Source: a virus
Length of the DNA: 64,000 nt
Virus record (IMG/VR): IMGVR_UViG_3300021138_000007
Location: 48,112 to 112,111 of that record
Direction: 5' to 3' (one strand)
Both the position numbers and the translations under genes were made by a program. Numbering within the stretch: the stretch's first letter is position 1; each line of letters opens with the position of its first letter. The notes below the pieces were generated by a model. The model was not told where the DNA came from and made no database searches. It worked only from the letters and a program-made list of their open reading frames with translations. Shown here one piece after another: positions 42,525 through 60,767 of the stretch.

Positions 42525-42842
42525 TTCTTAACTCCTTCGGTCCTGCCCCTCTTGGCTGAACCACACATAGTATACCTGATATGGTCAAGCCCTTCGCAAG
42601 CGTTGCTGAATTTATCGCAATATCACGTTTTATTTTACATCTTAAAAAACAAGGAGCGTATGCTATTTATGCAACATAATATTATAATATAAAATAGTTA
42701 ATATAAATAATTATGCAAAAAACGTCCCATTATGAATTTTAAGACGTAAAATAAATTGCTGATTTTTGAGCAATCAAATGCGTTGTCTCTATAGGGTATA
42801 ATATATGTGTAGTTTACCCTAGAGGGTAGGGGTTAAAATAAC

Positions 42843-43328
42843 ATGACATTAGAAGCGATTATTGAAACACTGGATAAAAAGCGACGTGGTACAATTAGCA
42901 CTGTATATTTGGACAGACCTGCACTTGTAAGAAGTAAATATCATGGTCCTGAAATTCGCAAAAAATCAGGAGTGCAGTTTTTGGCAAAAGTCGATTACTC
43001 AGACACAAATACAGTACGCCAAGCGGTTAAGAATGGCATTCGTCCTACGCCTCAAACACCGTCTTGGGTGGAAGAAGTTGTAATGCAAAAAGGTATTACA
43101 TTCTGGCGCAAAAAAGATCAATGGTACCTAGTTATGGTGCCAATCAAACCACTCAAAGTAACATGGACTCTTGACGGTAATACAGTACCAAAAGAATCAA
43201 TCCATGATTTTCTTCTTGCCGATGATGCAAAAGAAAGTAACTTCCAAGCAGAAAAATCAGATCGTGCAGAAAAAGGACATTCTGTTTATATTGTTGCTAA
43301 ATTAGAAAACATCTCAAAAATGATTTAA
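42843..43328 (+). CDS. hypothetical protein, ~160-aa family paralog B
   Basis: Clearly homologous to 42039-42524 (DRPA.V...Y.GPEIRK, WVEEV, FWRK..QWYL). Confidence 0.82.
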   Translation: MTLEAIIETLDKKRRGTISTVYLDRPALVRSKYHGPEIRKKSGVQFLAKVDYSDTNTVRQAVKNGIRPTPQTPSWVEEVVMQKGITFWRKKDQWYLVMVPIKPLKVTWTLDGNTVPKESIHDFLLADDAKESNFQAEKSDRAEKGHSVYIVAKLENISKMI

Positions 43329-43471
43329 TCGAAACAGCGACTCCCAAAATCCAGTACTAAATACTGGATTTTATTTTTGTCTTAAAATTCATGGAAGGAC
43401 GATTTTTGTTACTCTCTAACAATAAGATTTATTGCTAAATTCATAGCAATAAATATCGTTCCCTCTAACGT

Positions 43472-43738
43472 GTGATTGGGTATAATAAATACATTGTGCT
43501 GAGGACGCAGGGAAGTTATAAGTTTGCTGACACAAAAGAAACAGCAGAGTTTTGGGGATTCCTGCCTTTCTCTTACTGTTGTCAGGCTATTAGAGACAAT
43601 GTTATAATTCACGAAGCACGATATGAAATTTTTTGTCGTTCTCTAAATGATTTTGTAGCTATTGTTAAGATATGGAATGCTTTAGGAGAAATCAAGACAA
43701 AATACAGTACGATTCAATGGAGATATACGATTTGTTAG
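43472..43738 (+). CDS. small hypothetical protein; true start probably near 43496
   Basis: GGGTATAAT -10 box lies inside the annotated 5' end. Confidence 0.45.
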   Translation: MIGYNKYIVLRTQGSYKFADTKETAEFWGFLPFSYCCQAIRDNVIIHEARYEIFCRSLNDFVAIVKIWNALGEIKTKYSTIQWRYTIC

Positions 43739-43837
43739 AGTGTTACTCTAACTCACTTCTTGCGATGGCATAGTATCGCAAGAAGTGAGTTAACTCCAAC
43801 CCCTCAAACAAGCCCGTTGAAAAACGGGCCTTTATTG
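43727..43837 (+). ncRNA. structured RNA element, copy 1 (three hairpins)
   Basis: Near-duplicate at 45149-45252 with compensatory stem changes around a conserved GGCATAGT loop. Confidence 0.55.
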
Positions 43838-43935
43838 AAATAAGAGTCTTATCGTAATTTTTAAGACTCTAAAGAAAATTCGAAAAATTATTCGAAAAAT
43901 GCTCGATTTTTGTTTAGACCGTGGTATACTTATTA

Positions 43936-44096
43936 AGTCAACGATAAAGGTTGACATCGTTCAAAAGTCCATCTTAGGATGGCATTCGTCAACACAACAT
44001 ACGGGAAGCGCGTCCCGTAACGTGATCAACAGCTAGGTGCGAAAAAGGGCCTCACCTTGAGTCTTCTGTCAAAAGCAGAAGGAGGCCCTTTTTCTT
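43936..44096 (+). ncRNA. ORF-less structured RNA cassette
   Basis: TGGTATACT promoter; hairpins GTCAAC/GTTGAC, CCATC/GATGG, TACGGGA/TCCCGTA, AAAAAGGGCCT/AGGCCCTTTTT. Confidence 0.5.
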
Positions 44097-44193
44097 TTGC
44101 ATTTTTATATAAATAAACGTCCCATCATGAATTTTAAGACGTAAAATAAATTGCTGATTTTTCCGCTTGCTATAAAAATAGCAATAAAAACAC

Positions 44194-44221
44194 TTGACTT
44201 TTTAGTGTTTAGTAGTATACT
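44194..44221 (+). promoter_or_regulatory. sigma70-type early promoter
   Basis: TTGACT-N16-TATACT; near-identical copy at 46307-46334. Confidence 0.7.
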
Positions 44222-44252
44222 AGGCTATCGCTGAGGCGAGGGAGTAAAACAG

Positions 44253-44828
44253 ATGTTTATGAAACGCGACAAGTCCGACGATTTACAGAATGCCGCTTGT
44301 AATATCTTTGGATACAATGGTACTAAATTGAAAGCTGAGTTGGCTAAGGACAATATCGTTCAGTTGACTGACATGTATTGGCATGGTGGTACTAAAAGTT
44401 TCTATGCCATTATTGAATTGGCAACGATGAATTCAGTACCTTTGCCAAGTTTTCATCCTATGTTTGACGGTCAAGTACTTCCTGATAAGGTGGAACTTAA
44501 ACCAGGATACGTACTGGTTCGCCATATTAAATTCTGCGGAAGTGATTTAGGACTTGAGTTTATCGTTCATGCTGACGACTGGAAGAATTACGAACTTCCA
44601 GTACCCACCGAACTGAATAGGGATCAAAAGGTAGTACTTCTTTGTACTAAGTGCTATATTTCAAGTTATAGGCGCGAAGAAGCCAAAAGGTACGGTATTA
44701 AGGATTTTGACGCGATTAAGTCAGAGTTAATCGCTAAAGGACTTTTGTCCAAAATCGGAGCACTCACCGTAGAAGGTAAAAATGTTGCCAGTACTTTAGG
44801 CGACATCTATTCCTACTCTAAAAGATAA
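44253..44828 (+). CDS. hypothetical protein
   Basis: GGAG SD, own promoter and terminator. Confidence 0.75.
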   Translation: MFMKRDKSDDLQNAACNIFGYNGTKLKAELAKDNIVQLTDMYWHGGTKSFYAIIELATMNSVPLPSFHPMFDGQVLPDKVELKPGYVLVRHIKFCGSDLGLEFIVHADDWKNYELPVPTELNRDQKVVLLCTKCYISSYRREEAKRYGIKDFDAIKSELIAKGLLSKIGALTVEGKNVASTLGDIYSYSKR

Positions 44829-45002
44829 GTACTAAAATAAAAGGGAAGGATATTCATCTTCCCTTTTATTTTACGTCTTAAAATCTATGACGGGACGATT
44901 ATTGTAATAAAATTAAAAAAGTATTTTCACTATGGGATTTATTGTTATTATAAAAACAACTTTTATTATACTCTTAAACGTGTTTGAGGGTATAATAAAT
45001 AC

Positions 45003-45146
45003 ATGACGAATGAGGAGTTAGTAACAGAACTTCTGAAACTTAATCCTAAAGCAAAAATCAAGATTTTATCTTTGGATAGCATTGATAATCATGATTTGGT
45101 TAAGATTTATGGAGAACAAGATGTTATTATATTCGATCATCAATAA
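45003..45146 (+). CDS. 47-aa hypothetical protein (MTNEELVTELLKLNPKAKI...)
   Basis: Manual translation; GGGTATAAT-N7-ATG leaderless start. Confidence 0.6.
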   Translation: MTNEELVTELLKLNPKAKIKILSLDSIDNHDLVKIYGEQDVIIFDHQ

Positions 45147-45148
45147 AA

Positions 45149-45252
45149 ACGATTTGTTAGAGTAACACTCTAACGCACATCTTGTGATTGGCATAGTAGT
45201 CACAAGTTAACTCCAACCCTCAAACAAGCCCGTTGAAAACGGGCCTTTATTG
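45149..45252 (+). ncRNA. structured RNA element, copy 2
   Basis: Near-duplicate of 43727-43837. Confidence 0.55.
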
Positions 45253-45414
45253 CATTTAGAGTCCCGTCATGAATTTTAAGACGTAAAATAAATTGCTGAT
45301 TTTTGAACAAGTTATTGATACTTGAAAATTGCTCGATTTCCAACAAGAAAATACGTTTACCCTATATGGTAAACTATATGCGTCTGTGCCATGAGGGGCC
45401 AACAGGGAGTTAAA

Positions 45415-46167
45415 ATGCAAGTTTTAGATATTAACCTTTCGTCAACGATTAACCAGTTTGTAGAATTTGGTGAGGTTGCTATGGAGTCCGTAGAAACCGC
45501 CGTAAAGCGGTTTGCTGGGTTGAATCTGTACTTGAAGGTATCCAACTACTCTGAAGGCGGATACGACGACGAAACAGGCAGGGAGTGGCCTTCAGGGTGG
45601 AACTCTGAAACAGCTCCGTATGACGTTAAAAACGTAGTATGGCACTGTCTTGGATTGTCCCATATGGACACTGATGCTTTTCGAGAGGAGTTCGAGTCGT
45701 GGGCTACCGCGACTGAACAGGAGTTTCTTGCGTCTGCCATCCGATGTATAGCCTATGACGATGAGAACATTCAGGCTGAATTCTTGACCCCTGAACAGTT
45801 TCAGGAACAGGAACAAGCTGAATTCGTTCGACGTATGAACCTTGAGCGAGATCGGTACGAACCTATCGCTTGTCGGTTCGCTCACAAGCATGGAGTTAAA
45901 TTTGGTACTCCCGAATTTATGTCCAAGTTGGCAGATGCTTTAAGTACTGCCGAAGAAGATGAGCAGGAACGAAGGCATGGCATGAGGGAGGACGGTTTGT
46001 GCTGTACTGGGTACGGTTTTGGTAGCGCGGCTGTAAACGAATGGTACGATTCGTACAATACTCGTTTACCTGAACTCGTCGAACTTGAGGGACTTATGGA
46101 ATGGATTCAAGAATTCCAACCGCTTTTGTATTCTGTTTGGGAGTCCAGTAGACTACAAACAGCATAG
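45415..46167 (+). CDS. hypothetical acidic protein
   Basis: GGGAG SD before ATG at 45415. Confidence 0.7.
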   Translation: MQVLDINLSSTINQFVEFGEVAMESVETAVKRFAGLNLYLKVSNYSEGGYDDETGREWPSGWNSETAPYDVKNVVWHCLGLSHMDTDAFREEFESWATATEQEFLASAIRCIAYDDENIQAEFLTPEQFQEQEQAEFVRRMNLERDRYEPIACRFAHKHGVKFGTPEFMSKLADALSTAEEDEQERRHGMREDGLCCTGYGFGSAAVNEWYDSYNTRLPELVELEGLMEWIQEFQPLLYSVWESSRLQTA

Positions 46168-46364
46168 TCTAAAGTACTCAATAACTAGGAATGTAAAAAT
46201 TCCTAGTTATTGTTAATATATTAAAAAAAGTGTCCCGTTATGAATTTTAAGACGTAAAATAAATTGCTGATTTTTGAGTAAGCTGTAAAGATAGCAATAA
46301 AAGCACTTGACTTTTTAGAGAATAGTAGTATACTAAGTTATCGCTTTGAGGGCGATATGGAGTA

Positions 46365-46811
46365 ATGAAAATGTTTGATCGTTTAACAGAAACCGCGCTG
46401 GTGCCTTTCACTAATGATGAACTGAATCTTCTTTTGGATCGTCACTATGGAGTCGAAAGGAGTGACGACGACGGCAAGTCGATTATCACTGATATTTGGG
46501 ATGCTGTAGCCCCTTATACAGACGTATATGCAACACTGACACACTATCACATGACGGATTGGGAACCCGCTGAGGGTGGCTGTGGCATTTGGAAGGCAGT
46601 GGAGCAAAAAGCATGGCGCGTCGATGGCACTGTTACAGAAGACGATCTGGATGCCATTAGGGACGCAATCTTGTCTTCTCTAACAGACGTGCGAACCAAC
46701 GAGCAAGGTGAAATCGTAGGGTACTCAAACGACGGCGAAAAAGGTTCGTTTTCTGTTTACTTCACCGTCGGACGACCTTACGCACATATCCCCTATTTCG
46801 GATACTGCTAA
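46365..46811 (+). CDS. hypothetical acidic protein
   Basis: Own promoter, SD and terminator. Confidence 0.7.
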   Translation: MKMFDRLTETALVPFTNDELNLLLDRHYGVERSDDDGKSIITDIWDAVAPYTDVYATLTHYHMTDWEPAEGGCGIWKAVEQKAWRVDGTVTEDDLDAIRDAILSSLTDVRTNEQGEIVGYSNDGEKGSFSVYFTVGRPYAHIPYFGYC

Positions 46812-47064
46812 GAGTTAAAAGCAAGGGAAGTAATTTCCTTGCTTTTAATTTGTGTCTTAAAATTCATGACGGGACGCTTTTTGTAAAAAAGTTAAAATTA
46901 ATTATTTTTAACCATTATAATTTATTGTTATTTAAAATAGTAATAAAACGTTGTTTTATATCAATAATGGTATGATTTGTCGATTCATTCTCTAAATGAT
47001 TATTTTGCCTATATTTTAGCAATAAATCGTGGATATTATTTAGAGAGTGTGATATAATAAAGAC

Positions 47065-47205
47065 ATGAAAAAGTTTATTCTTCATTGGAAAGACGGAAAG
47101 AAAGAAGAAGTGACTGGCAATGATATTGCTAGTGCCTTTAGCAATGCGGGATATTCTCAAGGCGCGATTAGAGCCTTGGATTATTACGAAGAAGTCAAGA
47201 ACTAA
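47065..47205 (+). CDS. 46-aa hypothetical protein (MKKFILHWKDGKKEEVTG...)
   Basis: Manual translation; TGATATAAT-N6-ATG. Confidence 0.6.
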   Translation: MKKFILHWKDGKKEEVTGNDIASAFSNAGYSQGAIRALDYYEEVKN

Positions 47206-47426
47206 TATGAACTAAAAATAACATTTAGAGATAGATGTTATTTTTATTATAATGCATTTAGAGTCCCGTCATGAATTTTAAGATGTAAAATAAAATTAAA
47301 GATATTGCTTAAATTTTAGCTCGATTTATTACTACTCGAAAATTGCTCGAAAAATGTTCGAAAACACTCGATTTTTGCCAGCATATACGGTATTATATAA
47401 GAACATAAGGATACGGAGAACAGTAA

Positions 47427-47909
47427 ATGACTACAACTGAAATCGCTACCGCACTTGAATCCAAACCGAAGGGTTCCATTTTTACTCTGGTTGTTACACG
47501 CGCAGGCAAGGTGCGAAAGTCTTATGACGGTAAACCTATCACCAAGACTTCGATCATGCAGGGAATGACAAACGTCAACTATGCTGATCGTAAACCAGTA
47601 CGTGAAGCCGTCGCCAACGAGGAAAGGGATGCTCCCGAACTTCCATCCCATATTGAGGATACCTTTATGGTATCTAAGACACGATTCTGGAAGGGTAAGA
47701 ACGGTAAGGAGTATTTTCCTGTCTGTCTGACTGGTAATAAGCCGCAAGCACAATGGTACTTGGATGGTGAACCAGTGGACTTGGATACCATTAAGGATCA
47801 TCTTTTGGCTTCCGAGTACGCCGAACGAAAGGACAAGGAAACCACTGAGGACAAAGGTCAGGCCCTTTTCATCGGTGTCGAAGTTTCCAACGTAACGGAA
47901 GTACGATAA
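47427..47909 (+). CDS. hypothetical protein, ~160-aa family paralog C
   Basis: GKVRKSYDG..I.K; VREAV; FWK; WYLDG..V...IKDHLLA; KGQA.F. Confidence 0.8.
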   Translation: MTTTEIATALESKPKGSIFTLVVTRAGKVRKSYDGKPITKTSIMQGMTNVNYADRKPVREAVANEERDAPELPSHIEDTFMVSKTRFWKGKNGKEYFPVCLTGNKPQAQWYLDGEPVDLDTIKDHLLASEYAERKDKETTEDKGQALFIGVEVSNVTEVR

Positions 47910-48034
47910 ACTTCTGAAATTAAAAGTAGGAAAAGCAATTTTCCTACTTTTAATTTGTGTCTTAAAATTCATGACGGGACGATTATTTCAAAAATATTGT
48001 GTAAAATTATGCCTGATTATGGTATACTAACTGT

Positions 48035-48250
48035 ATGCCTACGAAGCGATATGATCGAACATGGTCGCAAATTTGCAATAAAGAAGGTAGCGTTTTAATT
48101 TATACTGAAGTTTTATGGTCCTCAAAATTCGGATCATCTTTTGTTACAATGAAGCGCGAACTTTACGAACAATTCGTGAAATCCAAAGAAAAGTATTTCT
48201 CAATTTTCATGAAAAAGAATAACATTACTAGCGTGATGTTAAAAGCCTGA
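48035..48250 (+). CDS. hypothetical protein
   Basis: TGGTATACT-N6-ATG. Confidence 0.55.
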   Translation: MPTKRYDRTWSQICNKEGSVLIYTEVLWSSKFGSSFVTMKRELYEQFVKSKEKYFSIFMKKNNITSVMLKA

Positions 48251-48264
48251 GGTAAAATTAGAAC

Positions 48265-48657
48265 ATGGCTGCAAAGAATGAATGGACCTTAAAAACATGG
48301 GACTGCGATAATAGCGGAAATAAATGCTGGGTTAAGAAATTTGGCAAAGGAGAAGTTAGTGTTGGTGTTGGAACATTTCTTTTAGTCAACTTTTCTTATG
48401 GTCCTAATTCCGATCATTCTATGTCAGGCACTCGCTGGCATTATGGCACAACCATTTCAGAACAAGATATGATGAACTGGATTGACGAAAACGAAGGAAA
48501 ACATAAATCAATGCCAGTCGATCCAAAACTTTACAAAGATTGGTTTGATTCATGTTCAAAAGAAGTGCAAGATGCACTTTTGGCAGTTGGACAACCCTGG
48601 CATCAATTGTGTCTGAATGATCATAATCGAAAACTGGGAAATTTGAGGTATACTTAG
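48265..48657 (+). CDS. hypothetical protein
   Basis: ORF track. Confidence 0.6.
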   Translation: MAAKNEWTLKTWDCDNSGNKCWVKKFGKGEVSVGVGTFLLVNFSYGPNSDHSMSGTRWHYGTTISEQDMMNWIDENEGKHKSMPVDPKLYKDWFDSCSKEVQDALLAVGQPWHQLCLNDHNRKLGNLRYT

Positions 48658-48660
48658 AGC

Positions 48661-48984
48661 ATGGCTAAGAAACCAAAAATCGTAGTCGATACGCCTTATC
48701 TAAATAGTTGGGCACATCAAGAAAAACTCAATCAGCAAGCCATTGAAGATGAAAAGAAATTGCCATTTCGACAAATGATTGAAGCTAGGAAAAAGCGACT
48801 AGCGAAAGAGATTGAAAGTGCCAAGAATTGCAATATCATCTTTAAAAATGAAAATATTGCATGGTATATGAGACTTTTCTACTGTGATAGAGAAACAGCA
48901 AGAAAAGAACTTGGTTATAGTCCTCCTCTTGCAACTGTATCTTTTGAAGAATATCGCAATTGTCCTTTCCGTGGAGGAGGATAG
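48661..48984 (+). CDS. hypothetical protein
   Basis: GGTATACT-N6-ATG; followed by a GGGC-TTCG-GCCC terminator. Confidence 0.6.
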   Translation: MAKKPKIVVDTPYLNSWAHQEKLNQQAIEDEKKLPFRQMIEARKKRLAKEIESAKNCNIIFKNENIAWYMRLFYCDRETARKELGYSPPLATVSFEEYRNCPFRGGG

Positions 48985-49005
48985 GGCTTCGGCCCTTTTA
49001 TTTTG
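48983..49005 (+). terminator. GGGC-TTCG-GCCC terminator fused to a reverse dyad site
   Basis: Same hairpin near 50189, 55730 and 58209, variant near 59362; the U-tract is the conserved arm of the dyad site. Confidence 0.8.
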
Positions 49006-49034
49006 TGTCTTAAAATCTATGGACGGACGATTAT

Positions 49035-49260
49035 TGTAAGTTTATATATAACTCGATGTCCTGTATACACACTGGTATACAGGACATCAGCATTTGTTAA
49101 ATAACTAGGGAGTGAGTCTAGTCATTTAACTACTCGGCCCAATGCCAAGGCCCCGTCAAGGTCGGACTGTTTTTTATTCTACACTTTAAAGATTATGTTA
49201 TCGCTTCATATGTGTTTTAAGTTCCTCCCGCCAGCGCCGTCTCTAAATCACACTGACTCT
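49035..49260 (-). ncRNA. candidate ~200-nt ORF-less RNA cassette
   Basis: Minus-strand TTGACT-N17-TATTAT promoter at 49264-49292; no meaningful ORF; hairpins GTTAAATGACTAG/CTAGTTATTTAAC and GATGTCCTGTATAC/GTATACAGGACATC. Confidence 0.45.
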
Positions 49261-49402
49261 TATATAATACCTTAACTGTGTATCGAAGTCAAGCATTTTA
49301 GAAAAATATTTTACATTTAAATTAAAATAAGCGTCTCGTCATCTTTTTTAAGGCATAAAGTAAAAAGCTCTAGTCTTTTTACTTTATGCAAGAATGATTC
49401 AC

Positions 49403-49768
49403 TTATGGATATACATAGTATTCCACTTTCACTTCACCAGATTGCAACATACTTACCATAGCAATTCCCCCAAGCCAGCCATATCCTTTCTCATTATAGC
49501 CAACATGAATGCTTGTATTGTCGATGCCAATTCCCTTGAACCATTCACAAATTTGTTTGGCTTTCTCAATGGCTTTTTCAGGAGAATTGAATTTATTCAA
49601 ATATCCTGCACCGCCAAAATAAGAATTATTCACAAGTAAACTTGTATCCACTGTTTTATTGTCTTTGTCGTCTTTTGGCGTGCTAAGACTATCCGCCAAA
49701 GGATAATCAGGCATATTCTCAATTTCTTCACGACGCTTCCAAAAATCGTTAGACTTAAAAACGCTCAT
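49403..49768 (-). CDS. hypothetical protein (MSVFKSND...)
   Basis: TGGTATACT-N6-ATG. Confidence 0.6.
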   Translation of the reverse strand: MSVFKSNDFWKRREEIENMPDYPLADSLSTPKDDKDNKTVDTSLLVNNSYFGGAGYLNKFNSPEKAIEKAKQICEWFKGIGIDNTSIHVGYNEKGYGWLGGIAMVSMLQSGEVKVEYYVYP

Positions 49769-49894
49769 ATACGTAGTATACCACATAATTTATAAAAATA
49801 AACAACTATTTTGAAATAATCGTCCCCTCATAAATTTTAAGACGTAAAATAAATCATTGACTTTCTAAGATCATGATGGTATACTATTTAAGCT

Positions 49895-50188
49895 ATGCAA
49901 ACAATCAACACCACTTTCGGTGAAGCTCGAATCGAAACTACCAAATACCAGCTTGGCGGTTTGGCTGTTTTTCTGATCGACAATCATAACGGGGAGCCTA
50001 TCGCAACTCTATCTACGTGTATTCCTGATCATGTTCACAAACTTGAAGAAGGTGAATTCTTCGTCAAGAATTGGTCAGAAAATGAAACTTTGGCACAAGA
50101 AGCATTTGAATCAGGGTTATTCATTGACACTGGCAAGAGTGCAGCCACTGGATATGTTGTTGCACCAGTCTGGAAATTCAAAGATTAA
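49895..50188 (+). CDS. DUF4313-like protein
   Basis: Y...LA..L...GEP.ATLS...F.KNWSEN...L...G......GY pattern; TTGACT/TATACT promoter. Confidence 0.6.
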   Translation: MQTINTTFGEARIETTKYQLGGLAVFLIDNHNGEPIATLSTCIPDHVHKLEEGEFFVKNWSENETLAQEAFESGLFIDTGKSAATGYVVAPVWKFKD

Positions 50189-50306
50189 GGGCTTCGGCCC
50201 TTTTATTTTGTATCTTAAAATCTATGGACGGACGGTTATTATAATTTTTTTGAATTTTTATAAAATCATTGACTTCGATTATCATAAGGGGTATAATAAT
50301 TCTGTT

Positions 50307-50645: not shown

Positions 50646-50654
50646 AGGAGCAAC

Positions 50655-51226: not shown

Positions 51227-51307
51227 AAATGTAGCCAGTTGAAGTTCTTTACTCACCTGCTGGAAGACTCAACGTGAAAGAACGCAGGTAATCTTTCAGC
51301 TACATTT
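51227..51307 (+). ncRNA. candidate ~80-nt pseudoknotted small RNA
   Basis: TTGACA-N18-TATAAT promoter; closing stem AAATGTAGC/GCTACATTT; interleaved pairings GTTCTTT/AAAGAAC and ACCTGC/GCAGGT. Confidence 0.5.
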
Positions 51308-51386
51308 TTATTTTGTATCTTAAAATCTATGGACGGACGCTTTTTGTCATTTAATAGCTAAAGGAGAATTTCTTCTCCTTTAGCTA

Positions 51387-51729: not shown

Positions 51730-51858
51730 TTTTATGACTCCAATAAAGACATTATACCATACTTCAGCGCGAAATGTAACTTTTATTTTTACATCTTAAA
51801 ATAAACGATGAGACGCTTGTTACAATAAACTCGAAAAAACTCGATTTTTATATTGTAA

Positions 51859-52098: not shown

Positions 52099-52196
52099 GA
52101 TATTCTTGTGATTTTAAACGCAAAAATTAAACAACAAACGTCTGACCATAAATTTTAAGATGGTAAATAAAATGTGATATATGGTATACTGTAATC

Positions 52197-52463
52197 GTGG
52201 AAAATAATTTAGGGTTCGTTGGATATAGTGATCGCGGATATCCTATTTATGAACTTGATTGTCGAGCGCGTTGTTTCAAATGCAATGAACTTTTAGTAAA
52301 TACTGGTCATGATCGTTTCACAGGTCATAGAGGCGGATATTGCTGCAATTGTCATATGACTACAAGTTATGATCTTCCAGAGGAACGATTGCACTTTATT
52401 TACAATGAGATGATGGGACATCAGCAGGGATATCGCCATGAATCAACAACAGTAGTGGAGTAA
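52197..52463 (+). CDS. zinc-ribbon hypothetical protein
   Basis: CFKC...CCNC; TGGTATACT-N6-GTG. Confidence 0.55.
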   Translation: MENNLGFVGYSDRGYPIYELDCRARCFKCNELLVNTGHDRFTGHRGGYCCNCHMTTSYDLPEERLHFIYNEMMGHQQGYRHESTTVVE

Positions 52464-52467
52464 AAAC

Positions 52468-53319: not shown

Positions 53320-53430
53320 TATAAGGGGAAATTTTCCCCTTATACTAATAGTATTGAATTAAGCGTCTAATCATAAATTTTAAGATACAAAATAAAATGT
53401 GGTATGTGGTATACTGAGTGTGGAGTAAAC

Positions 53431-54054
53431 ATGAATACTACTGCTCGTGTCTTAACATCTTCTCGCGGCAAGACAGTTACAACAGAATTGACTGATGAAC
53501 AGGCTTATGTGATCTGTAAAACGCTTAAAGGCGAGTTTATTGAAAGCATTACAAAGCGTCCATTCGTTCGCTTGACGCCCGATCAAATCGTTTGGCTACA
53601 TATCTACGCTCAACCAAAGCCAGAGCCACAAAAAGTCAAAATCACTGACAACTTTTCAAACATTATTGCACTATTTAATAGTGCAGTAAATTCCAAGTTG
53701 CTTAGACCTAAAATTCGCTTGTCAGTAAACGGATTTAACATCAAAATCAGCATGGCTTCTAAACATAGCAAGAATGCTGGTTATGTCTATGTGACAAGTG
53801 GCGTTACTGGGGCCGTAAATGACTATTACGGCAAGATTAGTCCCGAAGGTGAGTTCTACCCTGGAAAGAACTGTTTCGACGGTTTATATGCGTTTTTAGA
53901 GCGGTTTAGCGCATATCCTGCGGAAGTGGCGGCGGAATATGGTAAACGCACTGGAAGATGCTGTTTTTGCGAACATGAGTTGACTGATGATCGCTCAGTC
54001 AAAGTAGGCTATGGGCCTATCTGCGGTAGACATTATGGCTTGCCTTGGAATTAA
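53431..54054 (+). CDS. DUF6011-domain protein
   Basis: C-terminal YG..TG.CCFC...LTDDRSV.VGYGPIC. Confidence 0.78.
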   Translation: MNTTARVLTSSRGKTVTTELTDEQAYVICKTLKGEFIESITKRPFVRLTPDQIVWLHIYAQPKPEPQKVKITDNFSNIIALFNSAVNSKLLRPKIRLSVNGFNIKISMASKHSKNAGYVYVTSGVTGAVNDYYGKISPEGEFYPGKNCFDGLYAFLERFSAYPAEVAAEYGKRTGRCCFCEHELTDDRSVKVGYGPICGRHYGLPWN

Positions 54055-54210
54055 TTAAAATGGCAGTAAGAAATTGCTGCTATTTTAATTAAACAACAAT
54101 AATCGTCGCGCCATAGATTTTAAGACGTAAAATAAATTGCTGATTTTTAAGCAATAAATAAGCGTAGATTCTTTCGTATATATGGGTATACTCTTGATCA
54201 CGAGGTTGAA

Positions 54211-55101
54211 ATGAAGAGTTCCAAACCAAATAGTTATGATCTTATCACTGATCGCATGATCCAAGCGTTAGAAAATGGCACTTGTCCTTGGCGCAAACCT
54301 TGGTCCGCTTGCGGTAATGCCATCAACGCGGTATCAGGAAAGCGGTATCGTGGTGTAAACGTCTTTATGCTTGCTTTTAACGATTATGCTGACCCCCGTT
54401 GGTTGACGTATAAGCAGGCGCAAGAATTGGGCGGTAACGTCAAGACGGGCGAAAAGGGTACTTATATCTACTTTTATAAGTGGGTACAAAAGCCCGATGC
54501 AAATGACCCTAGTAAGGTGGCAACGTATCCTTTATTCCAAAGGTTCGTAGTATTCAACGTCTCACAATGCGAAAATCTGAAGCTGAAACCACTGGAAGTT
54601 AAGGACGATAACGAACCATTGGTAAAGGCCGAAGCAATTATCGAGTACATGAGTAACAAGCCCGTTGTACGATTCGGCGGCAATAGAGCTTGTTACCATC
54701 CTACTACTGACGTAGTTTGTATGCCAACCTTGCAAAGTTTCGACAGTTCAGAAGAGTATTACAGTACGTTCTTTCATGAACTTGCTCACGCTACTGGACA
54801 TTCGTCACGTCTTAACCGTAAAGAAATTACAGAATCCAAGGTGACTTTTGGTGATTGTGACTACTCCAAAGAAGAACTTGTGGCAGAACTCACCGCCTCT
54901 ATGGTATGTTGCACTCTTGGAATTGACAATAATCAGTCATTCGAGAACTCAGCAAGTTACCTTCGTAATTGGCTTGGCGTACTAAAGAAAGATATGAAAA
55001 TCTTTGCAGAAGCCGCTGGTAAGGCACAAAAAGCCGCTGACTTCATTATGGGAGTATCTTTCGCTCAGGAACAAGACAGTACCGAAGAACTCGCGGCATA
55101 G
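54211..55101 (+). CDS. ardC: ArdC-like antirestriction/ssDNA-binding protein with zincin domain
   Basis: PWRKPW, YRGVN, WLTYKQA...GG.V..GEKG, VFNVSQ, HELAHATGH..RL.R, YS.EELVAEL, SASYL..W. Confidence 0.92.
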   Translation: MKSSKPNSYDLITDRMIQALENGTCPWRKPWSACGNAINAVSGKRYRGVNVFMLAFNDYADPRWLTYKQAQELGGNVKTGEKGTYIYFYKWVQKPDANDPSKVATYPLFQRFVVFNVSQCENLKLKPLEVKDDNEPLVKAEAIIEYMSNKPVVRFGGNRACYHPTTDVVCMPTLQSFDSSEEYYSTFFHELAHATGHSSRLNRKEITESKVTFGDCDYSKEELVAELTASMVCCTLGIDNNQSFENSASYLRNWLGVLKKDMKIFAEAAGKAQKAADFIMGVSFAQEQDSTEELAA

Positions 55102-55262
55102 GAATAACATTAAAAGTAAGGAAAGCAATTTCCTTACTTTTAATTTGCGTCTTAAAAAACATGGACGGACATTTATTGTTATTATGTTTAATAATGATAA
55201 ATTGCTATCCAAAAAGCAATAAATAATAGCTCATATGTATCATGTAATGGTATACTATCTAT

Positions 55263-55514
55263 ATGCAGCTAACCCTCACGTACCGAGAAGCATTAAGTTT
55301 GATTGCAAGAGAACACTGTGTGCGTCCTGAAGATGTAAATATCATTGGATTAGGGTCTGATGATATTATTCAGGCTCTCAAAGATGATGACAAACTGAAT
55401 GCCATTAAACTCGCAAGATATAAGTATGGCATGGGTTTGAAAGATGCAAAAGAATTCGTTGAAAAGATCGGCACAACTGATCCTGACATTTTGGTGGTGG
55501 TGACAAACACATAA
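55263..55514 (+). CDS. ribosomal protein L7/L12 C-terminal-like domain protein
   Basis: KLNAIKLAR...GMGLKDAKEFVE. Confidence 0.7.
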   Translation: MQLTLTYREALSLIAREHCVRPEDVNIIGLGSDDIIQALKDDDKLNAIKLARYKYGMGLKDAKEFVEKIGTTDPDILVVVTNT

Positions 55515-55729
55515 TGTGGCAAGAAAGAATCAAAACACGTTTCGTTGAAGAATACGCCTATACTCGCAATAATGTTCTTTGCGGTAAAGTGAGGTCAAAT
55601 CCTTTCTTAATTCGTATTGTTGCAGAAGTTTATATCCCCAAGGATGGAGAACTTCAAGGCAAGACACTGACATTTCGTTGCAGTAAAATCGACGATGCAA
55701 AACACATTGTCGAAACATACTTCAAATAA
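55514..55729 (+). CDS. hypothetical protein
   Basis: Translationally coupled (TAATG). Confidence 0.55.
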   Translation: MWQERIKTRFVEEYAYTRNNVLCGKVRSNPFLIRIVAEVYIPKDGELQGKTLTFRCSKIDDAKHIVETYFK

Positions 55730-55822
55730 GGGCTTCGGCCCTTTTTATTTGCGTCTTAAAAAACATGAGAAGACCTTTATTTCAATATTAAAACAAAAAG
55801 CCTGTTTTGCAGGCTAGTTGTT

Positions 55823-56230
55823 TTAACTAAAGTTATCGTAATACATCAAATCATAAGTGCCAGGTCCATGCTTAATATCATGAGTTTCTTTACATCTCAT
55901 AAGTTGATTTGGCCCTAGATCGGCCCGATTCTTTTGAAGATATTCGTTTGTCAAAGGTTCAGTACGATTGAAACTTCTTTTAGTGATGATATTAATCATC
56001 TCTTGCGGGGTAATCTCGGCACCGTATTCGTCTAAAATTCCGTATTCAGGATTATTGAATTGTTCGATCCATTCTTCAAGAGTTTTGAAAACAGTAGCAC
56101 AAAGTAAAAAACACCAGCCAGCAGATGATTTGCCGATATGCACGTTTTTTACTTGTACTTCCAAGAATAAATCTGATTCTGGAAGATTTTCAGGTTGTTT
56201 TCTCCTGTAGAGATAATAGTTCGTACCCAT
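55823..56230 (-). CDS. hypothetical phage protein
   Basis: MGTNYY...HIGKSSAGW.F...I.DEYG motif pattern. Confidence 0.7.
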   Translation of the reverse strand: MGTNYYLYRRKQPENLPESDLFLEVQVKNVHIGKSSAGWCFLLCATVFKTLEEWIEQFNNPEYGILDEYGAEITPQEMINIITKRSFNRTEPLTNEYLQKNRADLGPNQLMRCKETHDIKHGPGTYDLMYYDNFS

Positions 56231-56350
56231 ATATCTAGTATACCATAGATTTCGAAAATTAAATACATATTTTTAAAGTAAATGTCTTCCCACGATTTTT
56301 AAGATACAAAATAAAAGTGTGAGAATTACTATTCCCACACTTTTACTATT

Positions 56351-56752
56351 TCATCCAAAGATGATTTCGTCAAATACAGCAAATTGGATAATGCAGTCCG
56401 CAACTTCTGCATCCATATCTTCAAGAAAATTGATTGTCTTTTTCCATTCTGCGTACTTCTTGATGCCTTCTTTGAGTGAATCAAGTGTTAATGGAATATA
56501 GTTTTCATAATCATCCGTGCTGAACGGTTGTCCTGTTTCAGTATCGTACAATTCCCATCTGAATCCTTCAGGGCTATAGTATTCGTCGCTTGTGGGGTCG
56601 CTAGGTTGTGTTCCTTCAACCAATCTGGCTTCGGCACACCAATAGTCAATACCGCCTTCAAATGCCGTGCAAATGATTTCATTGATTTGCAGTTGCGTAA
56701 GAGGGCGATCAAGCGTGACCTGAATAGTGCAAATAACTTTTGTTTCTGGCAT
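56351..56752 (-). CDS. hypothetical phage protein
   Basis: A.EGGI.YW...DAE.AD.I.Q.A.F.E...G. Confidence 0.7.
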   Translation of the reverse strand: MPETKVICTIQVTLDRPLTQLQINEIICTAFEGGIDYWCAEARLVEGTQPSDPTSDEYYSPEGFRWELYDTETGQPFSTDDYENYIPLTLDSLKEGIKKYAEWKKTINFLEDMDAEVADCIIQFAVFDEIIFG

Positions 56753-56885
56753 AGCATCAATAGTATACCATAGATTTCGAAAAAATCAATAGCCCTCGAA
56801 AATAAAAGTGTCTCGCCATGATTTTTAAGACGTAAAATAAATTCGAAAAAACTTCGATTTTTGAAAAATGTGTGGTATAATATTT

Positions 56886-57019
56886 GCGTTGAGTGGTAAA
56901 GATAGTTCGAAATGTCTTGCCCGTTGAAGTACAAGACGCATCAACTAGCCAGAGAAGCGGGTTCGATTCCCGTTATGGGCAATCTCATATAGCATTAAGT
57001 GGGTAATGCGCTGGTGAAA
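56886..57019 (+). ncRNA. YrlA-like Y RNA / circularly permuted tRNA mimic
   Basis: In order: GCCAG, T-arm GCGGG-TTCGATT-CCCGT, acceptor stem TATGGG-CAAT-CTCATA closed by a loop, TA, D-arm GCATT-AAGTGGGT-AATGC, G, CTGGT (pairs with GCCAG). TGGTATAAT promoter upstream and terminator at 57020-57057. Confidence 0.72.
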
Positions 57020-57084
57020 GTATAGAGAAATAAACGAATAGTTTTATTTCTCTATACGAATAAATTCTGAGGTATACTGTAATC

Positions 57085-57333
57085 ATGCTCAAAAACGACA
57101 GACCTTTTCTCACTGAATTGCGATCCATCTATAATGGAGCTTTAGCGGCTCATATCAATAAGATTAAAAGCCTAATGAAAGAGGCCGCAGCAGAAGGGGC
57201 AAATTACATTGTTTATAAAATGCCTTTGGGTCCAATGTCAAGCAAAATTCAAGTTCTTTTTCAAGCAGAAGAGGGGATTCGAGTTTCTGGAACTGACGAG
57301 GGCCTTTACATTACTTGGACTTGGGAAGATTAG
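57085..57333 (+). CDS. hypothetical protein, paralog of 62656-62910
   Basis: AA.EG and L.I.W shared; GGTATACT-N6-ATG. Confidence 0.6.
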   Translation: MLKNDRPFLTELRSIYNGALAAHINKIKSLMKEAAAEGANYIVYKMPLGPMSSKIQVLFQAEEGIRVSGTDEGLYITWTWED

Positions 57334-57346
57334 GTATACTGTAATC

Positions 57347-57604
57347 ATGGCAAAAATTGAATACCTGCTCACTGCGTTAGATGATAAAGGTAATATTCTG
57401 GCGAGAAAAATTCATATTGGACAACAGAATGGCACTCAGCGCGGTATCCAAAGAGCTTTCGATAACGCACGTAAAAAATCAGTGCTTTTGTTGGATTCTG
57501 TTCCAAACGCCAAACGATGCGAAATGGAAAGAATTTTCAAAACAGATAACAATCAATACACGGATTCGTATGGTACAATTATCGAAGGATTCACATGGAA
57601 GTAA
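57347..57604 (+). CDS. hypothetical protein (MAKIEYLL...)
   Basis: AGGTATACTGTAATCATG, identical to the start of the preceding gene. Confidence 0.6.
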   Translation: MAKIEYLLTALDDKGNILARKIHIGQQNGTQRGIQRAFDNARKKSVLLLDSVPNAKRCEMERIFKTDNNQYTDSYGTIIEGFTWK

Positions 57605-57831
57605 AAATTCTTGATCAATTGTTTGAAATGCAATCTACTGAAAATGACGGCAGAGGCATTTCAGCAGTACGTGAATTAGTCAAAATACTGCGTAATCCAG
57701 ACCATACGCAAGAACAACTGAAAACCGCAGTTTACTGGGATTGGGATAAAATTGCAAATTATCCTGAGATTGCAAACTTCATCAAGAAAAACATCTATGA
57801 TGATTCGACAATGTATGTTCGTGAGGTATAA
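57595..57831 (+). CDS. hypothetical protein
   Basis: ORF track. Confidence 0.55.
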   Translation: MEVKILDQLFEMQSTENDGRGISAVRELVKILRNPDHTQEQLKTAVYWDWDKIANYPEIANFIKKNIYDDSTMYVREV

Positions 57832-57839
57832 TTAAAGAG

Positions 57840-58205
57840 ATGAGCAGTTTCTATATTGATTTTCCCAAAAGCAAAGTGACATCGTACTTCGAGTCTATTG
57901 GTTTTGCACAAGTCTACTATCAGCCACACACTCCGATGGGTGGCGGCGGAAATACCATTGGTAAAGTGATATACGATGGTAATGATCACATTGTGCATAT
58001 CACCAACAACGCAGGCGAAGCCTATTCAGAATGGAATCTTGAGAAATTGGAGAATGAATGCGTTATCGAAATTGATATCAATGATAAAGCATTGCGATTC
58101 AAAAACAAAAACTACACTATCGAATTCGTTCCCAAAACTCTTGATCAAATCAAAAAATATTACAAGAGCGAATTCGGTGTGAACTGGCTGAAAACTGGAC
58201 GTTAA
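57840..58205 (+). CDS. hypothetical protein
   Basis: GGTATAAT-N7-ATG; UUCG terminator. Confidence 0.6.
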   Translation: MSSFYIDFPKSKVTSYFESIGFAQVYYQPHTPMGGGGNTIGKVIYDGNDHIVHITNNAGEAYSEWNLEKLENECVIEIDINDKALRFKNKNYTIEFVPKTLDQIKKYYKSEFGVNWLKTGR

Positions 58206-58308
58206 AAAGGGCTTCGGCCCTTTTTTATTTTACATCTTAAAATTCATGATGGGACGATTGTTGATACTTTATGTTAAATGCCCTTTTCAGGGCATTTAAC
58301 GTGGTATT

Positions 58309-58530
58309 TTAGACAAATACAGGTACGACTGTAGCGTATGTTGGTGGTAAGAATATTGCATCAGTCAATGCTTGCACTGAATCCTCATCCTCATCGCTCC
58401 AGTTCTCGCAACCCATATTGAGGAAAAACGCCATAGTTTCGGCCAAAACCTGAAATTGACGGGTGAGGTCAAACTTCAAGAGGGCATTAAAAGCCCAATC
58501 CAACTGTTCATAGAGTGATTTATTCGGCAT
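58309..58530 (-). CDS. hypothetical protein
   Basis: Own minus-strand promoter. Confidence 0.55.
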   Translation of the reverse strand: MPNKSLYEQLDWAFNALLKFDLTRQFQVLAETMAFFLNMGCENWSDEDEDSVQALTDAIFLPPTYATVVPVFV

Positions 58531-58675
58531 AGCATAGATAGTATAGCATAGTTTGACGAGAAAGTCAAATTTATTTTACATCTTAAAATCTATGGCGGGA
58601 CCAGCTTTGCAATATTTTAAAAATTATATAAATAGTTGACTATTACTTGTGAGCGTCAGGTATACTTATTTTACT

Positions 58676-59359
58676 ATGCTAAAGACTTATGCCACTGCGA
58701 TGACTGGCAATTCTAAACTTGGCAGTGGGGTCGCAACGACATATAGGCCCGTCGGCAACGCAGGTACGTCTGAGGGGACGTGTGCTGGCAGTTGCGCCAT
58801 GCTGAATAATGGTTGTTATGCTCAAACCAATCCGTTTGTTGCAAAATGGCATAATACAGCAAAGTCCACCAATCATGATCTTGACGTTCTATTGCAAGAA
58901 GGAGCTAATTTAGTTCGTTTACATACTGCTGGCGACTTTTTTAAGTCTAACGGTAACGGCGGTTGGGAATTGGATTTAGATTATGTCATGGCAGTAATTC
59001 AGTTCTGTAAAGATAATCCCAAGATTACGGTGTGGACATATACTCACGATTTTAAGGAATTTATTAAGCATAATTTAACTTATGCTAAAAATGCTTTCCC
59101 TAGCAATTTTTATTTACTTGCGTCAGTAGATACGCTTGTAGATAAGTATATTGCCACAAGTCACGGGTTTAAGACTGCAAGAGTCATTATGACTGAAACT
59201 GATAAAGACCCAAGCGAAACATTTTGCCCGTATGATCTACAATCCTCACGCGGGATTAAACCTACTGTAAAATGTTCTACTTGTAAGTTGTGCTTTAACG
59301 ATAAACACAAAAAGGACATTGCATTTATCGCCAAATTGCCAAAAAAGTACAGAAAATAA
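58676..59359 (+). CDS. Gp88-like Fe-S/radical-SAM-related phage protein
   Basis: GNSKLG; TC..SC.....CYA; RLH..GDF; WTYT; ASVD; CP...C..CKLC. Confidence 0.65.
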   Translation: MLKTYATAMTGNSKLGSGVATTYRPVGNAGTSEGTCAGSCAMLNNGCYAQTNPFVAKWHNTAKSTNHDLDVLLQEGANLVRLHTAGDFFKSNGNGGWELDLDYVMAVIQFCKDNPKITVWTYTHDFKEFIKHNLTYAKNAFPSNFYLLASVDTLVDKYIATSHGFKTARVIMTETDKDPSETFCPYDLQSSRGIKPTVKCSTCKLCFNDKHKKDIAFIAKLPKKYRK

Positions 59360-59456
59360 TCGGGCTTTGGCCCTTTTATTTTACGTCTTAAAATCTATGG
59401 GCGGACGATTATTGCAAATTTATAAAATATTGGGATATATTACTATCCCAATATTT

Positions 59457-59825
59457 TTAGTTTCTGACAGCTTGTTTCAACTGGTAAACTTGATCTTCAA
59501 GATTAGCTTTTTCAGCTTTCAGTGTTTCATTTTCTGTTGAAAATTTCTTCATACTTGCCTCATATTGATCTTGATAAACAGAAGAATCTGGCTTGTATGC
59601 TTCAAGCCAAAGTTTGCTATTAAACAAAGTACACAAAGACATAAGTCCTGTAATACAAAGAGCGGCGATAGCAATAATTGCAGTATTTTCGTTCCAATTA
59701 CTGCCTTTAATCATCCAAAAGATGATAACTGCTAGAATTAACAAAGACACAAAACCTAAAACAAGATATGTGACTCCATGAATATGAGCGGCGTCTGATA
59801 ATGCGTGTAATGTTTTATCTGGCAT
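59457..59825 (-). CDS. two-TM membrane protein with coiled-coil tail
   Basis: Hydrophobic segments. Confidence 0.6.
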   Translation of the reverse strand: MPDKTLHALSDAAHIHGVTYLVLGFVSLLILAVIIFWMIKGSNWNENTAIIAIAALCITGLMSLCTLFNSKLWLEAYKPDSSVYQDQYEASMKKFSTENETLKAEKANLEDQVYQLKQAVRN

Positions 59826-59846
59826 GACTGTATGATACTTTATGTG

Positions 59847-60032
59847 TCATTCTTTTGTCAATATATCTGGGTTCGAAAAAACTTCTATGCAGAATAAAAT
59901 AAATGCTGCTCCAAGCCAGGTGCTAAAATCAAATATGATATGTTTATCAAATAGAAGATTTATTGATAATATCAAACCATAAGGACAGACAATAAAACAA
60001 ATGATGTTGTAAATAATTGTTATTAATTTCAT
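59847..60032 (-). CDS. small membrane protein
   Basis: Hydrophobic 61 aa. Confidence 0.5.
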   Translation of the reverse strand: MKLITIIYNIICFIVCPYGLILSINLLFDKHIIFDFSTWLGAAFILFCIEVFSNPDILTKE

Positions 60033-60046
60033 ACTCGAATTATCGG

Positions 60047-60412
60047 CTAATGAAGAACGATTTTTACAATTCCTTGCATTGTGACACTCAAATTATTTAC
60101 AGTATTAGATACTCCATCTAAAAGATTGAGATCACTTTGTTCTTGTGCTGTTCGAATTTGTTTTGCGAAAAGTTCGAAAAAATTATACGCCAGACTCTCG
60201 AAATTTGTTTGCAGTTGAGTAAGTTTTTCAGAGTCAGTCATATTTGATGTATCCACGCCAGCGTTAAGATCATCAAGATTAAATTTATCATTTCTAGTTA
60301 AAGATAATTCGGTTCCAGAGTGCGACATGGTATAATTGATTGTCGCACTTCCGTCTGTGTTATCTGTGATATGATTAACAATATAACTGATAGATATAGA
60401 AAGATCAGGCAT
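60047..60412 (-). CDS. hypothetical protein
   Basis: ORF track. Confidence 0.55.
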   Translation of the reverse strand: MPDLSISISYIVNHITDNTDGSATINYTMSHSGTELSLTRNDKFNLDDLNAGVDTSNMTDSEKLTQLQTNFESLAYNFFELFAKQIRTAQEQSDLNLLDGVSNTVNNLSVTMQGIVKIVLH

Positions 60413-60432
60413 ATTGTTTTATACTCGAAAAA

Positions 60433-60654
60433 TTAAACTATTGCCTTTAGTTGTTTATCTATTTCGGCAATTTTATTTTCGAAAATCTGTTTACTCTTTG
60501 TGAGTGCTTCTTTATGTGTGAATATTTCATCTTCATTATAGATGAATCTATTATCACAAATATATCTTGCTTTATCACAAGATATGATTTTGTGTTTATG
60601 TATACTTCCGTTTTTACTAACGCTGTATACAATTTCATTAATCGAATATTTCAT
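60433..60654 (-). CDS. hypothetical protein
   Basis: ORF track. Confidence 0.5.
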   Translation of the reverse strand: MKYSINEIVYSVSKNGSIHKHKIISCDKARYICDNRFIYNEDEIFTHKEALTKSKQIFENKIAEIDKQLKAIV

Positions 60655-60767
60655 GCTTATATTGTACCTCGAAAATTAATTATGGGAATTTATTTTACAT
60701 CTTAAAATAAATGTTGGGACCGTTTTTGTTATTTAATTTAATTAGGGAAAGAACTTCCCTAATTAAA

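Follow-up and report, generated by a model that had tools for sequence, protein, structure and literature searches.

A lineage-private box joined to an A-tract recurs at the transcription-unit junctions of a giant-phage early region

The last 64 kb of a 112,111-bp contig in IMG/VR (record IMGVR_UViG_3300021138_000007, positions 48,112 to 112,111; hereafter the window, numbered from its first letter) contain an array of about 27 short transcription units (42629..60720) in which nearly every junction holds a copy of the same short asymmetric sequence, here called the box. The DNA belongs to an uncultured freshwater giant phage, apparently lytic, and the array is an early region of the host-takeover type; CheckV puts the completeness of the record at 31%. 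An earlier note on this DNA had taken the boxes for possible recombination sites of a shufflon- or integron-like system and had offered, as an alternative, that they are operators or loading sites for one DNA-binding protein. The comparative evidence favors the alternative. On balance, we lean toward reading the box as a cis-acting boundary or operator element, private to this phage lineage and recognized by one DNA-binding protein, within early cassettes that resemble the promoter-early stem-loop (PeSL) elements of T4-type phages.

Exact matches to GTC-N12-TTAAGAY number 26 in the window, all between 42724 and 60720, against 0.26 expected from shuffled sequence (the largest value in any shuffle was 2). 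Allowing two mismatches added only 42639 (−), which has no GTC, and 49333 (+), which has GGC for GAY; the remaining two-mismatch matches have no flanking A-tract and look like chance. The full record returned the same 26 exact matches and nothing further, with zero matches for the reversed pattern as a control. The total is therefore 28 boxes, 13 forward and 15 reverse, all within 42.6–60.7 kb and free of indels, and the other 94 kb of the record hold none, confining the array to the early region. These scans bear out the counts and orientations given in the earlier note, its constant geometry with the same two exceptions, and its observation that the first 42 kb are free of copies, and they extend the region specificity of the motif to the 112-kb record. 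Its core classes also hold, with CATGAATT and CATAGATT present seven times each and CATAAATT three times.

The consensus spans 32 bases, GTC-N4-YCAT-N2-ATTTTAAGAY-RY-AAAATAAA, and the conserved stretch in aligned copies reaches about 40 nt, running from a 5′ A-rich AATAAnC through the box to the 3′ AAAATAAA. Positions 14–20 (TTTTAAG) and C3 are invariant (28 of 28); G1, T2, T10, and A21 are kept in 27 of 28; and the variable positions are 4–7, 11–12, and 22–24. Conservation that is position specific in this way points to a pattern of contacts rather than to blockwise homogenization. The dyad described in the earlier note stands for one copy only: the box at 43846 is the sole good palindrome among the 28, while in general the box is asymmetric, with a mean of 3.3 of 8 arm positions complementary, pairing confined to GTC/GAC, and a segment between the arms that differs from site to site. 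Folded as single-stranded DNA, ten boxes gave −0.6 to −3 kcal/mol with z-scores near 0, and only the 43846 copy reaches −6.1 kcal/mol.

The boxes lie in the spacers between transcription units. As the note had described for the intervals between sites, nearly every unit has its own −10 and −35 boxes and a terminator; units lie on both strands. Many of the promoters are of the TTGACT-17-TATACT type or have extended −10 boxes (TRTGnTATAMT or TGnTATAMT), and terminator-like hairpins between 42.0 and 61.5 kb number 33, compared with 12.9 expected. The GC content of the array is 37%, compared with 33.5% elsewhere. At 15 sites the A-tract end of the box adjoins the upstream edge of an outward-reading promoter, with 13–77 nt between the A-tract and the −10 box; at the other 13 it adjoins the foot of the terminator hairpin of an incoming unit, and TTTATTTT on the opposite strand is the T-tract. 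Beyond the GTC end there are 20–180 nt of AT-rich spacer and then a further promoter or terminator. Around the box, units with unrelated cargo have a junction chassis of 50–160 nt in common (for example, 44106–44258 with 46217–46376 and 43727–43880 with 45149–45294).

Boxes are found at tandem, divergent, and convergent junctions, and at five sites (49007, 51317, 55753, 58234, and 59385) the units converge from both sides and the junction is free of promoters. From our reading of the site maps, the box is parallel to transcription at nine tandem junctions and antiparallel at seven, in line with the note's statement that cargo orientation is independent of site orientation. Inward-facing boxes flank 7 of the approximately 27 units, the level given by random orientation, and we accordingly dropped the idea of cassettes flanked by inverted repeats. 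Because the box is placed at all three kinds of junction, in either orientation at tandem ones, and flanks units inwardly at this level, we conclude that it lies mostly in nontranscribed DNA and that it tags the junction itself, whichever way it points.

Two degenerate box patterns scanned over IMG/VR found no contig besides the phage's own record. A metagenome scan with a 20-nt pattern returned mostly chance single matches, and only two loci from one sample were real: L219, with two copies, and L253, with one. There the box is 90–97% identical to window sites over about 42 nt, and flanks and cargo share nothing with this record. The same box amid unrelated flanks argues for selection acting on the box itself and for an array that is probably larger than 18 kb; L219 and L253 may be a missing part of this phage or belong to a close relative. 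The cargo of L219 (1–5188, contig Ga0214164_1000596) comprises Macro-domain, DUF7715, HNH, and WGR plus PARP-catalytic-domain genes. Judged from their domains, the PARP and Macro genes look like early cargo of the ADP-ribosylation writer/eraser type, and homologs of both lie in the early region of the closest relative of this phage (G001, 32–35 kb) with their relative order swapped.

A search of IMG/VR with Pol III alpha identified about 20 relatives at 50–62% identity, and in five large ones the box pattern of this phage occurs at or below the level of the reversed-pattern control. The closest relative, G001 (378,848 bp, 100% complete, 62% identity in Pol III alpha), is collinear with this record in inverted orientation. 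Its first 60 kb contain about 43 copies of one private promoter (AAAAATCCCC ... ATCGGATATATAA) and at least 23 copies of a private element of about 31 nt (ATGATCGTG ... AGAAAGTCAT) with an A-tract, whose A-tract end adjoins a terminator (about 14) or a promoter (6) and whose other end usually adjoins an outward-reading promoter. Five exact tandem copies of a shortened, 25-nt form of this boundary element (L089, 4660–4790) stand directly upstream of the gene for a 699-amino-acid rIIA-like GHKL ATPase, an arrangement that we liken to operator arrays. Only 3 of about 40 array genes are common to this phage and G001 (paralog A, ArdC, and GP88, described below), and these three have the same order and orientation in both. 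In each of the two phages, that phage's own private element brackets the ArdC and GP88 units.

Other relatives also give this layout with other sequences. G002 has a 22-bp palindrome (consensus GGGGTGATAATATTATCACCCC) in 18 copies, nine of them perfect, between 4.7 and 27 kb; about 10 nt past each copy comes a CAAATAAA tract, whose neighbor is a TTGCAT-17-TATAAT promoter or a terminator. Two divergent small genes with XRE-type helix-turn-helix (HTH) domains (L265, 16914–17488) have one copy between them, the classical placing of an operator beside its repressor, and these genes and the palindrome are likely a repressor/operator pair acting over the whole early region. In G004, a terminator is followed by a variable palindrome, an A-tract, and a −35 box, and the array also encodes a homolog of the G002 HTH protein. 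The layout of terminator, box, A-tract, and promoter is thus common to G001, G002, and G004, each with its own box. In G005 (99% complete), a further private promoter is present about 62 times, with a 10-nt word in inverted copies on either side of its −35 region, and in the private promoters of both G001 and G005 the ATG follows the −10-like box by 3–5 nt. Separately, G005 contains about 70 copies of a 22-nt word, CCACACAATCTGTATTAATCAT, at a spacing of approximately 160 nt over 19 kb (L126–L127, 14.4–33 kb), with many ATCAGGTGTGG-like words between them.

We propose that the element combines an A-tract with an asymmetric box (GTC ... YCAT ... ATTTTAAGAY) that a protein recognizes. It lies in the spacer between the terminator of one unit and the promoter of the next, where little transcription is expected. 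The A-tract would have a dual role, either as an UP-like upstream A/T tract of the outward promoter or as the opposite-strand T-tract of the incoming terminator. One sequence-specific DNA-binding protein, encoded by phage or host, would bind the box and would control or insulate all early units jointly, for example by early shut-off or by blocking read-through. We infer both this binding and its effect, and early shut-off, insulation against read-through, and activation are all conceivable roles for the putative protein. Because the same 40–60 nt recur about 28 times, the junctions would also serve as homologous crossover points of the PeSL kind, with cassettes gained, lost, or swapped there; such exchange would be a by-product. 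A site for one protein is suggested by the position-specific conservation, by independence of the neighbors (the box is unchanged beside quite different terminators and promoters), by the presence of boxes at convergent junctions, by the tandem copies in G001, and by the palindrome beside repressor-like genes in G002. Further points in its favor are the recurrence of the box in L219 and L253, the bracketing of the ArdC and GP88 units in both this phage and G001, the confinement of the array to the early region, and the precedent of the mycobacteriophage stoperators described below.

Several results weigh against this proposal. Family and profile searches recognized no DNA-binding domain in the open reading frames (ORFs) of the array and found no binding protein, and searches of the 112-kb record (31% of the genome) for HU, ParB, and XRE-HTH proteins were negative. 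The distance from box to −10 box varies over 13–77 nt, which argues that the box is not a phase-locked activator site, and the five convergent sites without a nearby promoter imply that control of initiation is not the whole story. Box orientation is unrelated to transcription (nine versus seven), unlike that of the stoperators of mycobacteriophages. Finally, the box shows no excess similarity to the G001 element, with a Smith–Waterman score of 6.94 compared with 6.76 ± 0.64 for column-shuffled controls. We had been able to align the two well by eye, and we dropped sequence homology on the strength of this score; an ungapped comparison of position weight matrices aligned only the A-rich ends and is uninformative. 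Since the similarity does not exceed that of shuffles, the link to the relatives is one of position and architecture only.

The recombination reading of the earlier note, by contrast, is unsupported: the boxes have neither inverted arms nor a constant core nor a single-strand fold, no recombinase accompanies them in this record or in four relatives, and the three genes shared with G001 are collinear. Profiles for tyrosine recombinases (PF00589), serine recombinases (PF00239), and Y1 transposases (PF01797), which as a control were positive in 14, 12, and 6, respectively, of 14 reference genomes, found nothing in this record or in G001, G002, G004, or G005. These relatives have analogous arrays and two of them, G001 and G005, are 100 and 99% complete, so that the missing recombinase, which the note had listed as a caveat for the window, now extends to the 112-kb record of a genome that is 31% complete and to four relatives. 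Integron attC, R64 sfx, and loxP/FRT sites are, like the box, short repeats at the edges of cassettes, with a well-conserved arm and a less conserved one. Unlike an integron, the array has no IntI-type tyrosine recombinase beside it in the part of the genome at hand, no attC-like hairpins at the ten sites folded, and no series of promoterless cassettes in one orientation behind a common promoter, since nearly every unit has its own promoter and the units lie on both strands. In the R64 Rci/sfx shufflon, inverted sfx sites divide alternative 3′ coding segments of a single gene; here there is no Rci (no PF00589 match), and the boxes are intergenic between complete units and not inside coding segments. 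The approximately 13-bp inverted arms around a constant 6–8-bp spacer of lox and FRT sites have no counterpart in a box with 3.3 of 8 pairing positions and a variable middle, and REP/RAYT or IS200/IS605 systems are disfavored by the lack of a stable fold and of PF01797. There remain the constant geometry, the occurrence of both orientations, the single site per cassette boundary, the same site beside unrelated cargo in another fragment, and the 69% of this genome that is unseen. We weigh these against the absent enzymes, the few complementary arm positions, the cassette promoters, and the preserved order and orientation of paralog A, ArdC, and GP88 between this phage (G000) and G001, and we consider it very improbable that cassettes are inverted, excised, or captured at these sites by a recombinase, whether one from an unknown family or one whose gene lies in the unseen part of the genome. 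Marginally less credible still is the specific form in which the boxes are substrates of a recombinase from an unrecognized family, with its gene among the ORFans or in the unseen remainder of the genome, and this enzyme captures, inverts, or excises self-contained promoter–gene–terminator cassettes; if true, this would be a recombinase-driven "early-gene integron" of giant phages with a private site and a private enzyme in each lineage.

A doubtful but weightier alternative is that the boxes are pure PeSL-type elements, kept as parts of promoters and terminators (an UP-like A-tract, a T-tract, curved DNA) and homogenized by recombination or gene conversion with no dedicated binding protein, the main consequence being modular turnover of early ORFans. 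The chassis around unrelated cargo, the small set of array genes common with G001, the RecA-like recombinase encoded by the phage, and the different order of the PARP and Macro units in L219 and G001 are all consistent with it, as is the nature of PeSLs themselves, which are composite terminator/AT-rich/promoter repeats that form mini-circles in hyperplastic regions of T4-type phages (Arbiol et al. 2010, PMC2839356; Comeau et al. 2014, PMC4122927). However, the 22 nt with the strongest conservation belong neither to promoter hexamers nor to the stem of a terminator, they are kept beside very different promoters and terminators and in a fragment with unrelated flanks, their variation is position specific and not blockwise, and their equivalent in G002 is a perfect palindrome between repressor-like genes. 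It is unlikely that the box is instead a site for a host factor, such as a nucleoid protein or global regulator, recruited by the phage to its early region. No phage candidate was found, boxes differ among relatives that possibly have different hosts, and phased A/T tracts suggest bent DNA; nevertheless, GTDB, with 185,579 bacterial and archaeal species genomes, has no instance of the 32-nt pattern, although this pattern includes the A-tract and a shorter host site could escape it, and comparison by eye showed no match to the consensus sequences for IHF, Fis, CRP, and the ARG box. To the idea that a sigma factor or RNA polymerase specific to the phage uses the box as its promoter, for example as one of a middle class (approximately ATCGTCC, 16–17 nt, and a YAAAAT −10-like box), we give the least credence of all. 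The spacing from GTC to the YAAAAT of the A-tract is about 17 nt and 15 boxes are codirected with the following gene, but transcripts from 13 of 28 would be antisense to the neighboring gene and would run directly from behind into a terminator hairpin, and the would-be contacts at 22–24 and 4–7 are among the variable positions.

Other ideas were tried and rejected. A mini-ORF (ATG-AAT-TTT-AAG-ACG-TAA) would lack its ATG in about half of the sites; a role in RNA, as a hairpin or processing site, conflicts with the location of the box outside predicted transcripts and with the occurrence of both orientations; SigH-type and sigma-54-type promoter boxes would call for AGG or GG-N10-GC, neither of which is present at the right spacing; and by eye no convincing match was seen to an IHF, Fis, CRP, ARG, or met box.

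Among known systems, the PeSLs to which the earlier note pointed are an apt comparison, in that both have composite terminator/promoter junctions with a chassis common to unrelated cargo. The array contains the repeated terminator stem-loops, AT-rich spacers, and early sigma-70-type promoters expected of PeSLs, bounding short operons or individual genes in an early region that is hyperplastic, rich in ORFans, and variable between relatives (most of its ORFs are without a family), and the consensus is lineage specific in both. The differences are that the repeat of PeSLs is a stem-loop with a promoter, whereas the best-conserved part here is an additional 22-nt asymmetric box; that this box occurs in either orientation and also between convergent terminators; and that the phage family here lies outside the T4-like phages and relies on Pol III alpha. 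What is new relative to PeSLs is a third component, the lineage-private box with its A-tract, layered on promoter/terminator cassettes. A second likeness is to the stoperators of Cluster A mycobacteriophages, approximately 30 asymmetric intergenic sites for one monomeric repressor, with motif and repressor varying by lineage (PMC9283540, PMC6550527). Here too 20–30 copies of one asymmetric, lineage-specific site lie in short intergenic spaces or at promoters, and one protein would be expected to read them all, as the L5 gp71-type repressor does. Stoperators, however, are 13 bp long, genome-wide, found in temperate phages, and oriented with transcription, whereas the boxes are 22–32 nt long, are found only in the early region of this giant and apparently lytic phage, and show no tie to the direction of transcription (nine parallel and seven antiparallel at tandem junctions). 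No cognate repressor was recognized in the 31% of the genome covered, while G002 and G004 have XRE HTH genes inside their arrays. The host-takeover module of Bacillus phage SPO1 also resembles the array: its small host-acting proteins come from a dense cluster of numerous very short operons, and every operon there has a strong early promoter and a terminator to itself. It is not known to have a common boundary box.

We regard the finding as incremental and not as a new principle. The early regions of large phages hold most of their unknown anti-host and anti-defense genes, here ArdC-like, WYL-like, and L12-like and, in the related fragment, PARP and Macro genes, and a single private box per junction would make it easier to find out how the units of such regions are switched and insulated together. 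The box would also be a practical marker with which to delimit early cassettes in metagenomic contigs of giant phages. Relatives keep the layout yet replace the box, in one case with a palindrome beside repressor-like genes, which suggests that a regulator and its approximately 20–30 sites evolve together. Such coevolution is known for stoperators in temperate mycobacteriophages and, to our knowledge, has not been described for giant lytic phages. If true, it could bear on exclusion and cross-talk between coinfecting relatives.

Neither the array nor 20 kb of core genes had a megablast match among 50,697 phage records, and at the DNA level there is no cultured counterpart. The remainder of the window encodes Pol III alpha, RecA, DnaB, a RecJ-like DHH protein, and AAA ATPases, whereas most array ORFs have no Pfam or PHROG family. 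Exceptions are a DUF6011 protein (53404–54054), an ArdC-like antirestriction/metallopeptidase protein (54211–55101), a GP88/DUF7227 protein (58649–59359), and a small early protein of 83 amino acids that matches the C-terminal domain of ribosomal L7/L12 (55263–55514, E 4e-6). Three copies of a 160-amino-acid paralog family (42039–42524, −; 42843–43328, +; and 47427–47909, +) are 32–36% identical to one another. The family has no Pfam or PHROG match, is represented by 19 database clusters, and includes an identical protein encoded on other contigs. Its AlphaFold model (predicted local distance difference test score 95.8) is weakly similar by VIA-align (Z 4.5) to the WYL/Sm-like barrels of the defense regulators PafBC, CapW, DriD, and BrxR, a literal W-Y-L motif is present in two of the paralogs, and Foldseek against the PDB returned nothing with E ≤ 0.001. 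From this model, the family is possibly a stand-alone WYL-like early protein; it is not recognizable as a DNA-binding regulator and is unconvincing as a box-binding protein. Locus searches with the GP88-like protein and with the paralog-family alignment gave no confirmed locus.

Individually, the boxes fall into place as follows. Box 1 (42629..42660, −), degenerate and without GTC, has its A-tract end toward the promoter of paralog A (42039–42524, −). Also directed toward promoters are Box 2 (42724..42755, +; gene 42843–43328), Box 5 (44119..44150, +; 44253–44828), Box 7 (45261..45292, +; 45391–46167), Box 8 (46232..46263, +; 46365–46811), Box 17 (51783..51814, −; 51532–51729, −), Box 20 (54105..54136, +; the ArdC-like gene), and Box 28 (60689..60720, −; operon 60654–59457, −), as well as Box 10 (47263..47294, +), which points to the promoter region of paralog C (47427–47909). 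Box 4 (43846..43877, +), the good dyad, has a terminator on its 5′ side and the promoter of a candidate noncoding RNA on its 3′ side, and Box 19 (53365..53396, +) likewise has a 5′ terminator, with the promoter of the DUF6011 gene 13 nt past its A-tract. Divergent promoters flank Box 14 (49822..49853, +; promoters at 49780, −, and 49880, +), Box 24 (56810..56841, +; 56767, −, and 56876, +), and Box 26 (58570..58601, −; TTGACT-17-TATACT on the minus strand and the promoter of the GP88-like gene on the plus strand), and Box 18 (52140..52171, +) is at a divergent junction with a −10 box just 13 nt past the A-tract.

The A-tract of Box 3 (43369..43400, −) is the T-tract of the terminator of 42843–43328. 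Other boxes directed toward the terminator of an incoming unit are Box 6 (44865..44896, −; 44253–44828), Box 9 (46844..46875, −; 46365–46811), Box 11 (47949..47980, −; paralog C), Box 15 (50202..50233, −; 49895–50188), Box 21 (55139..55170, −; the ArdC-like gene), and Box 12 (48997..49028, −; operon 48035–48984), which has a promoter on neither side. Box 13 (49333..49364, +), with GGC for GAY, points to the hairpin behind 49403–49786 (−), and Box 23 (56284..56315, +) points to the terminator of 56351–56752 (−) and has the promoter of 55823–56230 (−) on its 5′ side. Box 16 (51307..51338, −) is at a convergent junction between the end of a candidate small RNA (+) and the terminator of minus-strand genes, and convergent terminators flank Box 22 (55743..55774, −), Box 25 (58224..58255, −), and Box 27 (59375..59406, −). 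A second short palindrome, TGCTGA-TTTTT-GAGCA, lies behind five boxes.

Some smaller observations concern the transcripts of the array. A structured 3′ element of about 105 nt, consisting of two hairpins and a terminator, ends two unrelated units (43727–43835 and 45149–45250); its copies are 80% identical, and the changes fall on both sides of one stem. Four segments that run from promoter to terminator without a convincing ORF are candidate small RNAs: 43935–44095, 51231–51316, 49050–49257 (−), and 56886–57057. Rfam families searched over 41–64 kb gave nothing at gathering score, including no family for the 3′ element; the last of the candidates has a YrlA-like match of 24 bits against a threshold of 69 bits. 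A −10-like hexamer (TATAAT or TATACT), mostly preceded by GG, stands 6–7 nt before the ATG of several genes, operon-internal ones included (44991–45003, 47053–47065, 48253–48265, 48649–48661, 57073–57085, and 57827–57840), which suggests leaderless starts. The word TCGAAAA is enriched about 3-fold within 43880–60780 (22 occurrences compared with 6.8 expected), with 19 of the 22 on the plus strand, often near promoters.

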